Origin: Minisyncoccota bacterium
GTDB lineage: Bacteria; Patescibacteriota; Minisyncoccia; Phycocordibacterales; UBA2100
Reading direction: 5' to 3'
Assembly: GCA_035500505.1 (NCBI GenBank)
Contig: DATJXE010000004.1
Location: 50,230-114,229, forward strand
DNA: 64,000 nt
Shown here piece by piece: positions 40,088 through 62,071 of this stretch. The position numbers and the translations under genes were made by a program. The notes beneath the pieces are model-generated. The model was not told where the DNA came from. It searched no databases and saw nothing but the letters and a program-made list of their open reading frames with translations. The stretch's first letter is position 1, and the number at the start of each line of letters is the position of its first letter.

Positions 40088-40116
40088 CCTGCGTCAAGGC
40101 GACGCCTTGACGCAGG
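40088..40116. repeat. REP-like palindrome upstream of the RAYT gene
   Basis: CCTGCGTCAAGGCG-A-CGCCTTGACGCAGG is a perfect 14-nt inverted repeat. Confidence 0.6.
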
Positions 40117-40151
40117 GGGCTTCCAAAAAAGCCTTCGTATAAAATCAATCC

Positions 40152-40823
40152 ATGAATCGGGGTCACTTTGCCGTCGGCGAGTGGTATCACTGCTATTCGC
40201 GCGGGATCGAAAAAAGGAAAACATTCGTAAGCAAACGGGACTACGAACGGTTTATCCAACTATTGTATCTTTGTAACTCCCCTCGACCGATCCATCGAAG
40301 TAACTTGAGAAATCCGTCCTTGGGTGAAGTCTTGAATATTCCACGGCAAGAAACTCTGGTGTCTTTGGGTGCATTTTGCCTAATGCCCAATCACTTTCAT
40401 TTGTTAGTCAAAGAAAAACGGGAACAGGGAATCTCGCGTTTCATGCAAAAACTTGGAACGGCGTACACAATGTACTTTAATATCAAAGAAACGAGGGTCG
40501 GCGGACTTTTCACCAAACCGTTCCGTTCGCGCCTCGTGGGCGACGATAGATATTTTCAGTACGCACTACAATATATCCACTGCAATCCGGCCGAATTGTA
40601 CGAAGCCGGTTGGAAAGAGGGCGTTGTCAAAAATATGAAGGAGTTGGAACAACTGTTGGTGGAATACCCCTACGGGAGTTTCGGCGTTTACCAAAGTGCG
40701 AATCATCGTTTGCGCCCGCTCCTTGCGGACGAGGTTTTCGAGATCCAATCTCAAGCAACTCCTGCTCGAATGTTGAGAGAGGCCCGACTCTATTATGCAG
40801 AACGCGTCAAGGCGTCGCCTTGA
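40152..40823 (+). CDS. REP-associated tyrosine transposase (RAYT; IS200/IS605 TnpA-like HuH enzyme)
   Basis: 223 aa. N-terminus MNRGHFAVGEWYHCYSRG, the HuH motif PNHFHLL and a catalytic Tyr region (RYFQYALQYIHCNP). Domain order and length are as in RAYT/COG1943. Confidence 0.8.
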   Translation: MNRGHFAVGEWYHCYSRGIEKRKTFVSKRDYERFIQLLYLCNSPRPIHRSNLRNPSLGEVLNIPRQETLVSLGAFCLMPNHFHLLVKEKREQGISRFMQKLGTAYTMYFNIKETRVGGLFTKPFRSRLVGDDRYFQYALQYIHCNPAELYEAGWKEGVVKNMKELEQLLVEYPYGSFGVYQSANHRLRPLLADEVFEIQSQATPARMLREARLYYAERVKASP

Positions 40824-40828
40824 CGCGT
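40802..40828. repeat. REP-like palindrome overlapping the RAYT 3' end
   Basis: ACGCGTCAAGGCG-T-CGCCTTGACGCGT has the same GCGTCAAGGCG core as the upstream REP. It encodes the RAYT C-terminus ..RVKASP*. Confidence 0.6.
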
Positions 40829-59598: not shown

Positions 59599-60285
59599 AT
59601 GAATATGCGCGTACTCATCGTCGAAGATGAAAAGAGAATAGCGGACTTTCTCAAAGAATCGCTTGAGGCGGAATATTTCGCCGTGGACGTCGTCGATGAC
59701 GGCGACAAGGGTGCCTATTATGCGCAAATAAACGACTACGATCTCATCATCCTCGACATCATGTTGCCCAAGAAGGACGGATTTGAGGTCCTGCACGAAC
59801 TGCGGAGCGTCGGCATCACGATCCCCATCCTGGTACTCTCGGTCAAGAGCGAAACGGTCAAGAAAGTCGACTTCCTCAACGCGGGGGCCGATGATTACCT
59901 CACCAAGCCGTTCGTGTTGAGCGAACTCCTTGCTCGCATCCGAGCGCTTTTGCGGCGGCCGCAAAAGACCGAGGCTGAAGTATTCGCAGTGGGCGACCTA
60001 ACGCTGAACGTAAAGGCCGGAAAGGTCACGCGCGGCAAAAGGGATATATATCTTACGCGAAAAGAATTCATGCTTCTGCGCTACCTCATGCAGAATGAAG
60101 GCTCCATCATCTCGCGCGGCATGATACTCGAACACGTCTGGGACATGAGTGCCGACATCTTTTCAAACACGATAGAATCGCACATCTTGAGCCTCCGGAA
60201 GAAGCTCGGCGATACCGGCAAAACCCGCCTCATCCAGACTGTTCCTGGGCGAGGCTACAAGATAGAGGCCCCGCTTACTTCTTAG
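59599..60285 (+). CDS. OmpR-family response regulator (REC + winged-helix)
   Basis: Receiver domain with D9/D10, the phospho-acceptor D53 (LIILDIMLP) and K103. The C-terminal trans_reg_C domain is present. No histidine kinase gene is adjacent. Confidence 0.85.
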   Translation: MNMRVLIVEDEKRIADFLKESLEAEYFAVDVVDDGDKGAYYAQINDYDLIILDIMLPKKDGFEVLHELRSVGITIPILVLSVKSETVKKVDFLNAGADDYLTKPFVLSELLARIRALLRRPQKTEAEVFAVGDLTLNVKAGKVTRGKRDIYLTRKEFMLLRYLMQNEGSIISRGMILEHVWDMSADIFSNTIESHILSLRKKLGDTGKTRLIQTVPGRGYKIEAPLTS

Positions 60286-60391
60286 CCTCCTTGTGCACCG
60301 TTTGCTTACGGCACCACTTGCAGTACTTCTTAGTGCTACGTGCAGCAATACAAATGAGAAGACCACCGTACCGAGAGGCGCGATGGCTTCT
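60278..60391 (-). pseudogene. ribosomal protein L33 C-terminal fragment (attR-like remnant of rpmG 3' end)
   Basis: Its last 18 codons (KKYCKWCRKQTVHKEAKK*) are identical in protein to rpmG. There are 7 nucleotide differences, all synonymous. There is no start codon: an in-frame TAG lies 38 codons upstream, and the upstream part is unrelated to L33. Confidence 0.55.
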
Positions 60392-60418
60392 CTAACGGTG
60401 GTCTCGTGTTCGCGGCGA

Positions 60419-60886
60419 CTACGTAATGCCCGCCGCCATTGCTTCAATCGCCATCGCCCCCGAGCGCATGCTGCCGGCGGAAATCTTCGATGGATCCCGC
60501 ATTGCCAGCGCGCCCATTTTCAGGAGTTCGACTAAGTCGGTCTTCGTGCAGTTTCCCGGCAATGTGACCGTGACGTTGCGCCGATCCATATTGATCCGAT
60601 CGGCGATCCGCTCCATCCCCGCCAAGGCGGATTGGAACAGGAGGAAGATGGCGACTTCACGTTCGTTGACACGTATGCCAAGAATGGCTCCGTCGCGGTA
60701 GATGACAGCGCCCTGCATGCCCCGCGGCGCTTCATCGCACACGACGGCGCCGAGATGATGTGCAATCGCCTCGTTGGTCATGGTGTCGTCGTGGAGCTGA
60801 AACCAGACCGCCGAATTGAGCAGGGTCTTGGTGCCAGGCATTTTGGGCGTTCTCTTGCCGGAGGCAGGAGTGGCTTGGGTCTGCAT
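60419..60886 (-). CDS. hypothetical protein (155 aa), cargo gene 3 of rpmG-associated insertion
   Basis: AAGGAG RBS 7 nt upstream of the ATG. No recognizable domain. Confidence 0.45.
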   Translation of the reverse strand: MQTQATPASGKRTPKMPGTKTLLNSAVWFQLHDDTMTNEAIAHHLGAVVCDEAPRGMQGAVIYRDGAILGIRVNEREVAIFLLFQSALAGMERIADRINMDRRNVTVTLPGNCTKTDLVELLKMGALAMRDPSKISAGSMRSGAMAIEAMAAGIT

Positions 60887-61044
60887 GGTGTTTCTCCTTC
60901 GCAGTCTGGACCCTCTTGTCCGCGCGGCACTATGTCATAAAAGTGCACTGATAGCAACAGACAGCGTCAGTCGCATGCGAAGGAAAGATGAAATTATTTG
61001 AGGTCAACATTCCCGCAACGGACTCGACCAACGAAGAAAAACTT

Positions 61045-61081
61045 GAATAACAAAAAAGGAGGCCCGCGTCGAGCGCGGGCC
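61045..61081 (-). terminator. intrinsic terminator after the 162-aa gene
   Basis: Minus strand GGCCCGCG-CUCGA-CGCGGGCC followed by UCCUUUUUUGUU. Confidence 0.55.
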
Positions 61082-61106
61082 GTTGATCGAAGAGCGAGCT
61101 GCGCCG

Positions 61107-61595
61107 TCAGTCGCTCTCGGGATCCCTGAAGTAGAACTCGACAATCGACATATATCGGTTATCGCGGAGCAGTTTCCGCGCGTCCTTGCGGCTCATGTCG
61201 CCGCACCCGACCGCGAGCATCGCCCCAGCGATTTCATCCACGTCGGGGAGGTAGCCGGAAAAACCGTATTCGTTCTCGTTGCCGCTGACCGCTCCGGCGT
61301 ATTTCTCCTCGCTTTCGTTCATGCTCTGGCGGCTGAGACGGTGTCCGAGATCGCGGAACTCGAACAGGCGGCGGCACTTCTCGCGGCTCAGCCGGTCGTA
61401 CTTCTCGCGCTTGTCGAGCTTCGGCACGTCGCCCACAAGCCCACCGGCAATCGGTGTGCCTTGATGAGACACGCAGAAATATGCGCCGTCACGGCCTTGC
61501 ATCCCCTCATAGTCCCTGAGCAGAGCTTGAACGACTCCGGCGACGTATGTCGCTCGGGACGCGAAGGTGAAATAGTCAGGTAATCGGTCGCTCAT
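61107..61595 (-). CDS. hypothetical protein (162 aa), cargo gene 2
   Basis: GGGGAG RBS. The start codon lies 12 nt after the upstream gene's TGA. No recognizable domain. Confidence 0.5.
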   Translation of the reverse strand: MSDRLPDYFTFASRATYVAGVVQALLRDYEGMQGRDGAYFCVSHQGTPIAGGLVGDVPKLDKREKYDRLSREKCRRLFEFRDLGHRLSRQSMNESEEKYAGAVSGNENEYGFSGYLPDVDEIAGAMLAVGCGDMSRKDARKLLRDNRYMSIVEFYFRDPESD

Positions 61596-61607
61596 GGTGA
61601 ACTCCCC

Positions 61608-61787
61608 TCATTGCATCACGTAGCCACTGCCATACTTACAGGGCGTACCGTCAGACCTGTCGTGCTTCACGAATCTCAGGCCTGCCTTGTTGCTGCCATA
61701 AGCCAGGGATTCGGCAGATACATTTGGATCCTCCGCGACGTTTTGTTCGGTCTTGCAGAAAGGACAGATTTCTTTGCCCTCGCGCAT
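61608..61787 (-). CDS. small hypothetical protein (59 aa, CxxC-containing), cargo gene 1
   Basis: AGGAG RBS 8 nt upstream of the ATG. N-terminal ICPFCK. Its stop TGA overlaps the RBS of the next gene. It is below the track length cutoff in part (the track shows overlapping alternative-frame ORFs). Confidence 0.4.
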   Translation of the reverse strand: MREGKEICPFCKTEQNVAEDPNVSAESLAYGSNKAGLRFVKHDRSDGTPCKYGSGYVMQ

Positions 61788-61816
61788 GGTGTAAACTCCT
61801 CTGTTTCGCGGCCTGC

Positions 61817-61845
61817 AAAATAACTATTCCAGCGAGTATTGTCAA
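61817..61845 (-). promoter_or_regulatory. sigma70-like promoter for the three-gene cassette
   Basis: Minus strand TTGACA-17 nt-TATTTT ends 30 nt upstream of the ATG at 61787. Palindromes CGCACAATGTGTGTTGTGCG and GAGCGAGATCTCGCTC lie just upstream (61861-61895). Confidence 0.35.
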
Positions 61846-61912
61846 TTAGATGAGGCGAATCGCACAATGTGTGTTGTGCGAGCGAGATCTCGCTCATTCG
61901 AGCGAGACGGTT

Positions 61913-62071
61913 TTACTTTTTAGCCTCCTTGTGTACGGTCTGTTTCCTGCACCACTTGCAGTACTTCTTGAGTTCAATTTTGCGCTCGACGAGCTTGCGG
62001 TTCTTGCGCGACCAATAGTTGATGCGGCCGCACTTTGAGCAAGCAAGTTTTATGAGTTGATCTTGTGACAT
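61913..62071 (-). CDS. rpmG: 50S ribosomal protein L33
   Basis: MSQDQLIKLACSKCGRINYWSRKNRK..ELKKYCKWCRKQTVHKE. Zn-ribbon L33 (two CxxC). The track ORF extends upstream to 62137. Confidence 0.85.
   Translation of the reverse strand: MSQDQLIKLACSKCGRINYWSRKNRKLVERKIELKKYCKWCRKQTVHKEAKK

Follow-up and report, generated by a model that had tools for sequence, protein, structure and literature searches.

In streptococci, the 3′ end of rpmG, the gene of ribosomal protein L33, is an established target of ICEs (integrative and conjugative elements) and IMEs (integrative and mobilisable elements) with tyrosine integrases of the families Tyr_6 and Tyr_10. Decayed and accreted elements are common at this site (PMC4701971, PMC5357655). 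Elements that have lost their integration and transfer genes but retain both attachment (att) sites, attL and attR, are described as cis-mobilisable elements (CIMEs) (PMC6323972). In general, a complete copy of the target gene together with a partial one forms the standard footprint of integration, as is the case for islands and prophages residing in tRNA 3′ ends (PMC9897764). Here we describe a 1.6-kb segment at the 3′ end of rpmG in a 64,000-nucleotide stretch of contig DATJXE010000004.1 from a Minisyncoccota bacterium, further called the window. Its organization supports the view that it is a CIME-like islet of a known kind, present in an unusual phylum.

The islet resembles the streptococcal rpmG elements in the use of the same gene end, in the direct repeats of the gene 3′ end that flank it and in the fact that the gene is kept functional. 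However, the streptococcal ICEs and IMEs measure 5–40 kb and encode an integrase together with transfer or mobilisation genes, whereas the islet is only 1.6 kb long, contains three uncharacterised genes and no recombinase, and lies in a Patescibacteria genome. It shares with CIMEs the presence of att-type repeats without integration or transfer genes, and as these repeats are retained in a segment devoid of a recombinase, we refer to it as CIME-like. CIME status itself needs a cognate ICE or IME able to recombine the sites, and none came to light at rpmG across the 80 related metagenome loci that served as comparison set. The similarity to islands and prophages at tRNA sites lies in the combination of a complete gene with a partial distal copy, the end of the gene being supplied by the element; the tRNA-Lys region of the source genome (L001 1396-530, discussed below) is similar in this respect. 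Unlike in tRNA-site islands, the target is a protein-coding gene, and divergence between the two copies therefore shows as synonymous-only change. From the features by which integrative elements are recognized, a flanking repeat, an intact gene and an empty site at the level of the clade were found, but not an integrase of its own.

The footprint consists of a 57-nt direct repeat (60275-60331 and 61913-61969, with a start-to-start distance of 1638 nt) in which 50 positions (88%) are identical. In the same repeat search, the runner-up direct repeats between 58 and 64 kb are at most 24 nt long with 67–81% identity, which places the rpmG repeat far beyond chance. The upper copy, copy A, is the end of the rpmG gene itself, which is intact (61913..62071, minus strand, 52 amino acids; Pfam PF00471 Ribosomal_L33, 2.1e-18) and is preceded by a promoter-like site (62137-62109, minus strand). 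The lower, distal one is called copy B. Translated from the minus strand, both copies read KKYCKWCRKQTVHKEAKK followed by a stop, i.e., the last 18 codons and the stop codon of rpmG. The first 21 nt of the coding strand, AAGAAGTACTGCAAGTGGTGC, are the same in both copies, without a single mismatch. They can be regarded as the attL-like (61949..61969, minus strand) and attR-like (60311..60331, minus strand) cores and as the putative crossover region. Among relatives, the KKYCKWC codons of this core do display synonymous-site variation. The 7 differences between copy A and copy B (A/C, G/T, A/G, G/A, C/G, A/G, and A/G) all fall within the distal 36 nt and are all synonymous. Since synonymous changes represent 19% of the possible single-base changes in these 36 nt, the probability of seven out of seven is approximately 1e-5. 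Synonymous divergence between the copies is near saturation, directly beside 21 identical nucleotides. The reading frame of copy B is additionally closed by a stop codon 38 codons upstream of the final one, without an ATG, GTG, or TTG start between the two. A first-pass annotation, based on the letters of the window alone, had already reported that the rpmG end recurs downstream in the same orientation with 50 of 57 matches, that all differences are synonymous and that the downstream copy has no start codon. These observations are all reproduced, with the repeat being one base longer at each end.

Probably, a 1.6-kb CIME-like islet entered the rpmG 3′ end by site-specific recombination, thereby supplying its own replacement end and displacing the native one. 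Crossover would have occurred in or at the edge of the 21-bp block. The incoming DNA would carry its own last 11 codons and stop, and L33 would thus stay intact; the putative imported end (61913..61948, minus strand) encodes RKQTVHKEAKK plus stop and carries the seven synonymous differences relative to copy B. The original end of the host gene would have been shifted 1.64 kb downstream, where it would persist as a remnant that is no longer translated (60275..60310, minus strand). The integration enzyme may have been supplied in trans or may have been lost since. Excision would join ...AAGTGGTGC to CGTAAGCAAACG, which corresponds to the restored empty site, and a circular or attP form would read ...GCACGTAGCACT-AAGAAGTACTGCAAGTGGTGC-AGGAAACAGACC.... 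The insertion may be recent or reversible, and the 1.6-kb unit may be mobile.

The related rpmG loci show both the empty and the filled state of this site. The upstream order ClpB, tRNA-Tyr, pilin, rpmG is mostly kept across all 80, and in most of them rpmG is followed 16–50 nt further on by tRNA-Trp(CCA), which represents the empty site. A second rpmG end on the same strand occurs in nine loci, eight of which are distinct (L086, L091, which equals L092, L094, L098, L110, L115, L139, and L150). This second copy comprises the last 13–15 codons and is located 89–141 nt past the rpmG stop. The gene-end homology starts at the same GTGGTGC in the window and in the filled relatives; the same point of rpmG has been used recurrently in this group. 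In three of the filled loci (L110, L094, and L115), tRNA-Trp is found approximately 40–95 nt past copy B instead of after the gene, and what lies downstream of copy B at filled sites is homologous to the stretch that follows rpmG at empty sites. Among the filled loci, close relatives with an empty site exist for L150 alone (L152, L149, and L143); the 5′ part of its rpmG differs from theirs at 6–8 of 120 positions. Its copy B is 1–3 differences over 39 nt away from the gene ends of these relatives, and its copy A 8–10 over 39. It follows that the native end is the distal, displaced one and that the end within the gene was imported. Both the tRNA-Trp synteny and the L150 distances are in agreement with the earlier proposal that the downstream copy is the displaced native 3′ end, and the foreign character of copy A in L150 supports the view that a replacement end from another lineage was supplied by the element. 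Two further L33 sequences were observed in the set, namely an N-terminal fragment just upstream of rpmG in L095 (2592-2681, 60% identity to residues 1–30) and a second L33 copy in L164 (1793-1677, minus strand), which is convergent and cut off by the end of the contig.

Selection on the two gene ends can be read from the comparison with L086, the genome closest to the window (91% amino acid identity for ClpB and 96% for L33). The proportion of synonymous differences (pS) between both is 0.57 over ClpB, pilin and the 5′ part of rpmG. Copy B was compared over 39 nt (60275-60313, the remnant and the preceding TGC codon), and differs at 4 of these, with 3 synonymous changes, 1 change from stop to stop and no nonsynonymous change. 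The neutral expectation for this span is approximately 22 differences (P of at most 2e-9). This coding-style conservation implies that, until recently, copy B served both lineages as a functional end of the gene. Copy A, on the other hand, shows 6 synonymous differences over 6.3 synonymous sites, a saturated value that exceeds the divergence of the host genomes, which points to two imported ends from different element lineages. The simplest reading is that independent and fairly recent insertions took place at one hot spot. The derivation of both copies from functional rpmG genes, as put forward in the first-pass annotation, is sustained by the synonymous-only change together with the coding-type conservation of copy B.

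These values bear on two other explanations of the repeat. One is a local duplication of the host's own rpmG end, either in tandem or by an insertion with a long target duplication, that was followed by drift. It would account for direct repeats around an insertion without any recombinase, and direct repeats are said to flank insertions of restriction-modification genes as well. However, all seven differences are synonymous (P ~1e-5) and near saturation beside 21 identical nucleotides, and copy A is foreign compared to close relatives in the one clean case, L150. Such an origin is very improbable. Its variant with a tandem duplication and a decaying pseudogene was rejected, as neutral divergence would be expected, and 7 out of 7 synonymous changes and 4 differences over 39 nt versus approximately 22 were found instead. 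Secondly, copy B may be maintained by selection and still be used, be it through precise and frequent excision of a reversible, polymorphic element or as a functional RNA or DNA signal. In line with this, copy B is conserved between lineages far above neutral DNA, its residues track lineage-specific changes of the gene in several relatives (for instance CKWD/CLWD in L094; KAHTK in L139 and L150), and the perfect 21-bp repeats would permit precise excision. Yet recent independent insertions give the same pattern without ongoing function. Moreover, copy B lacks a start codon or a conserved upstream open reading frame (ORF), and its frame relative to an upstream ATG varies among relatives. We consider continued use of copy B improbable.

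The recurrence of the architecture is also relevant for the question whether the contig is correctly assembled. It is a MEGAHIT metagenome contig (k141_3102742, 196 kb, ENA assembly ERZ27256576) that NCBI lists under a Candidatus Paceibacterota MAG and that is represented by one assembly only, and two strains may have been joined at a shared 21-mer. Such a chimera is the least probable of the explanations considered, given that the same architecture is present in 8 independent assemblies of relatives, that composition is uniform across the junctions and that an identity of 21 nt is far below the final k-mer size, which we take to be the 141 implied by the contig name.

The insertions at rpmG in the relatives are gene-less mini-insertions that bring a replacement gene end and measure approximately 130–190 bp each between the stop codon of rpmG and that of the displaced copy (L086 10160-10319; L091 10160-10325; L094 851-1012; L098 6721-6857; L110 10160-10296; L115 4615-4803; L139 10160-10325; L150 1093-1259). 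They are built up in a fixed order, with an arm, RAGGARGGGGTC, hairpin 1 (GGGRAAMC...GKTTYCCC), GTGGAGGAAGGAAT, hairpin 2 (GGGAAAACCGTGGGTTTCCC), AG plus 3–6 nt and the displaced end. The arm, CCAYTTGCAG with extensions, is complementary to the rpmG codons CTGCAARTGG. The two hairpins constitute a core of approximately 70 nt, immediately 5′ of the displaced gene end. Using covariance model R1 and nhmmer, this core was found in 12 loci, leaving out L092 as a duplicate of L091: eight at rpmG, two at tRNA-Lys, one at tRNA-Glu and one at tRNA-Thr. Compensatory double changes are present in 10 of the 16 hairpin pairs, 97% of the cells are paired and none of 500 shuffles matches this, although the alignment used had been fitted to the model. 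Directly upstream of the core, 11 of the 12 loci have an arm of which 9–17 nt are complementary to the target (G-T pairs allowed). In L094, the longest complementary run lies elsewhere, and the expected arm TCACTTGCA is seen only by eye. Shuffle controls for the arm gave 0–6 matches out of 500 for ten loci, 20 for L131 and 52 for L094. In the RNAalifold prediction, the arm pairs with the junction sequence to form a stem that contains an internal loop. Searching Rfam 15 with four core-bearing loci and the tRNA-Lys copy returned tRNAs only, and inspection of the core by eye for a hepatitis delta virus-like, hammerhead or group I reading gave none. Viral-contig scans for the rpmG end, L33, hairpin 2, and a degenerate core pattern did not result in matches either.

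Besides at rpmG, the core occurs next to duplicated tRNA 3′ ends. The source genome itself carries it at tRNA-Lys(CTT), about 7 kb past the window end (L001 1396-530, approximately 70,200-71,070 in window numbering). At this site, some 700 bp are followed by an arm directed against the T-loop and 3′ strand of the tRNA, the core (623-555, 82 bits), 14 nt in which the tRNA 3′ end is repeated, and a terminator. The 700 bp include an ORF of 146 amino acids with a signal-peptide-like N-terminus, and the arrangement is a cargo-carrying copy of the mini-element. The core or a diverged version of it is additionally present beside the 3′-end duplications of tRNA-Lys in L131 (1360-1150, minus strand), tRNA-Glu in L055 (3880-3600, minus strand) and tRNA-Thr in L046 (7-270, plus strand). 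In L055, a record labelled Micavibrio sp., the duplication takes in the downstream terminator. Other repeats of tRNA 3′ ends (tRNA-Trp and one more) were observed approximately 125–150 nt downstream of their own genes in L086 (10815-11010 and 12010-12265) and L099 (2186-2430). Their spacers are different, yet likewise rich in hairpins, and include a stretch complementary to the T-arm of the tRNA. Within 2.3 kb, L086 harbors three 3′-end duplications.

Folded single-strand att sites are found in CTX-phi, of which attP(+) is used by XerCD, and in integrons as attC. The mini-insertions, and only these, resemble both by an inverted copy of the target, a structured spacer of approximately 70 nt and a hybrid site. 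Pairing of their two arms can give a stem that has a central bubble of 2–4 nt beside the presumed crossover, as in CTX-phi and attC. The window insert has none of these features, and movement of the mini-insertions by Xer or IntI, or as a single strand, is an analogy only. Tentatively, rpmG and several tRNA 3′ ends in Paceibacterota might be the targets of undescribed tiny gene-less elements that consist of a replacement end, a complementary arm and the two-hairpin core. In this possible but doubtful scheme, the fold of arm and junction would mimic the target and would create a folded single-strand site, comparable to CTX-phi and attC, or a nucleic-acid-guided site, serviced by a host enzyme, with the window islet as a cargo-carrying user of the same crossover point.

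In the window insert, nhmmer and model R1 did not detect the core, the best match in the window (E = 3.1) being located elsewhere, and an inverted copy of TACTGCAAGTGGTG, i.e., an arm, is absent at up to 3 mismatches. At the position that core-derived sequence takes up in the mini-insertions, copy B of the window matches copy A perfectly over 15 further nt. The islet is not a member of the core-bearing family, though it shares the target and the point, GTGGTGC, at which the homology of the two gene-end copies begins. Nevertheless, one ancestral event could underlie both the insert and the 112-nt core-bearing mini-insertion of L086, the window lineage having afterwards acquired 1.5 kb of cargo inside it while losing core and guide arm. 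L086 is the closest genome and has its insertion at the same point, and the distances between the A copies (6/39) and between the B copies (4/39) are the smallest in the matrix. On the other side, the window has no trace of core or arm, and its copy B continues to the left for another 15 nt that are perfectly identical to copy A, in a place where L086 has core-derived sequence. Furthermore, the synonymous sites of the A copies are saturated (6/6.3), beyond the 0.57 of the genomes, and the B copies evolved as coding sequence, so copy B has not been an idle relic since the split. A shared event is therefore unlikely, and we retain separate entry of a CIME-like islet.

The insert between the repeats measures 1581 bp, and its GC content is like that of the surroundings and uniform across the junctions. 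Just 3′ of the rpmG stop lies a palindromic hairpin, and a promoter-like site, TTGACA-17-TATTTT (61817..61845, minus strand, consensus match only), precedes the first cargo gene. This gene, c59 (61608..61787, minus strand, taken from the ORF list), encodes 59 amino acids and has a Shine–Dalgarno-like AGAGGAG upstream of its ATG at 61787. It is a singleton ORFan without family matches, as only the protein itself was found among 5.8 billion proteins. After a gap of 12 nt follows c162 (61107..61595, minus strand, 162 amino acids), belonging to an uncharacterised family of proteins of approximately 165 amino acids. A full HMMER search revealed 262 remote homologues, by which the family comprises at least 262 clusters of 150–190 amino acids with conserved G, S, D/E, and EK motifs. 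The 45 members that were compared match nothing in Pfam, NCBIfam or PDB and practically nothing in PHROGs. The family contexts in L166-L170 are those of single genes in ordinary Paceibacterota chromosomal neighbourhoods. The homologue that was the one match of a word-indexed search is 88% identical and resides in an unrelated context (L003). A family member with 32% identity adjoins hisS in L169 (6001-6510), where the order LepA-HxlR-flavodoxin-glutaredoxin-RNaseH-HisRS equals that of the window (hisS region L165 3150-4412); the window has a SET-domain gene at that spot.

Downstream of c162 lies an intrinsic terminator-like hairpin, GGCCCGCGCTCGACGCGGGCC plus a T run (61061..61081, minus strand), that is kept after the L003 homologue. 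It is followed by a remnant of the last ~20 codons of a convergent gene (60989..61051, plus strand), of which the translation MKLFEVNIPATDSTNEEKLE plus stop resembles, by eye, the end ...GKMRLFEFNVPATDSNNEERLE plus stop of a longer gene in L003. This remnant shows the cargo to be mosaic or decayed. The third cargo gene, c155 (60419..60886, minus strand, 155 amino acids), is a near-ORFan with a single homologue in the word-indexed search (L004, 208 amino acids, 60% identity over 67%). Between c155 and the rpmG remnant, a hairpin with a 10-bp stem, AGACCACCGT...ACGGTGGTCT, was read from the sequence and is a possible terminator (60360..60404, minus strand). None of the three proteins has a match in Pfam, PHROGs, PADLOC or NCBIfam, and the whole insert, compared by blastn with collections of phages and plasmids, gave no match. 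AlphaFold2 models based on shallow alignments are too poor to use, with a predicted local distance difference test score (pLDDT) of 47 for c155 and 38 for c162. The islet would thus contain two transcription units without a recombinase, c59-c162 with the promoter-like site and the terminator, and then c155. It is a guess that c59-c162, with its own promoter-like site and terminator, forms a small accessory or addiction-type module, with which its organization is compatible.

At the other side of the remnant, and outside the element, a convergent orphan response regulator gene of the OmpR type is located (59599..60285, plus strand, Response_reg and Trans_reg_C domains), without an adjacent kinase. 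As was noted in the first-pass annotation, the remnant overlaps the end of this gene; the overlap amounts to 11 nt and includes the stop codon of the regulator. Because orthologues align only to residue 222–224 of 228, it is the remnant that encodes the last 4–6 residues of the protein. The same TAG within the remnant terminates a different convergent gene (146 amino acids) in L086 and L091. The empty site had been predicted as rpmG followed directly by the regulator. This was not encountered in any of 80 orthologous regulator loci, which have neither rpmG nor a shared window neighbour nearby; relatives have tRNA-Trp after rpmG instead. Since no neighbours are shared, the regulator is not the ancestral neighbour of rpmG, and a second rearrangement abuts the remnant. 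Likewise, the absence of tRNA-Trp or a fragment of it from the 64-kb window indicates at least one further rearrangement, with its breakpoint at the remnant end. A later rearrangement past the remnant would have swapped tRNA-Trp for the regulator block, by which the regulator came to end inside the remnant.

In agreement with the initial description of an element without an integrase, no integrase, resolvase, transposase or other recombinase family was detected in the ORFs of the insert or in the called genes within 10 kb on either side. A diversity-generating retroelement was considered and rejected, as there is no reverse transcriptase within this 10 kb on either side and the differences are not confined to adenines and are all silent. 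Further away, the window encodes a Y1_Tnp protein (IS200/RAYT-like HUH, 223 amino acids, 40152-40823, plus strand) with motifs LMPNHFHLL and YIHCNP. Its gene is flanked by GCGTCAAGGCG-type palindromes (near 40090-40125 and 40815-40826), comparable to RAYT genes with repetitive extragenic palindromes. As mobiliser of the hairpin core, this transposase is disfavoured, since the palindromes around its own gene (CCCCTGCGTCAAGGCG...) have no relation to the core.

Several elements weigh against entry of the islet by site-specific recombination. The data examined yielded neither a recombinase nor an excisionase, and the 80 related rpmG loci have no integrase-bearing element at the gene up to 10 kb downstream. 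The empty site is seen at the level of the clade, and the window species itself provided neither a conspecific empty site nor a circular junction. Every other insertion seen at rpmG is marked by the conserved core, which is missing from the insert. Past the remnant, the flank that encodes the response regulator, DUF1761, DUF192, and MurJ is not the ancestral neighbour. Lastly, a search for the same cargo beside other rpmG genes had been suggested in the first-pass annotation; the cargo was found next to no other rpmG, and the c162 homologue of L003 has an unrelated context.

Taken by itself, the islet is moderately interesting, and most of the interest comes from the recurrent hot spot and from the undescribed structured mini-elements. 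A synonymous-only repeat is a clean marker, readable from the sequence alone, for integrase-less islets in uncultured genomes. The target-complementary arm of the mini-elements, together with their covarying hairpins, offers a testable lead on how targets are chosen. The mobile elements of Patescibacteria, the candidate phyla radiation, are poorly known. In these bacteria, elements land repeatedly in the tail of a gene for an essential ribosomal protein, and in doing so they rewrite the last 11 codons of L33 with foreign, synonymous sequence.

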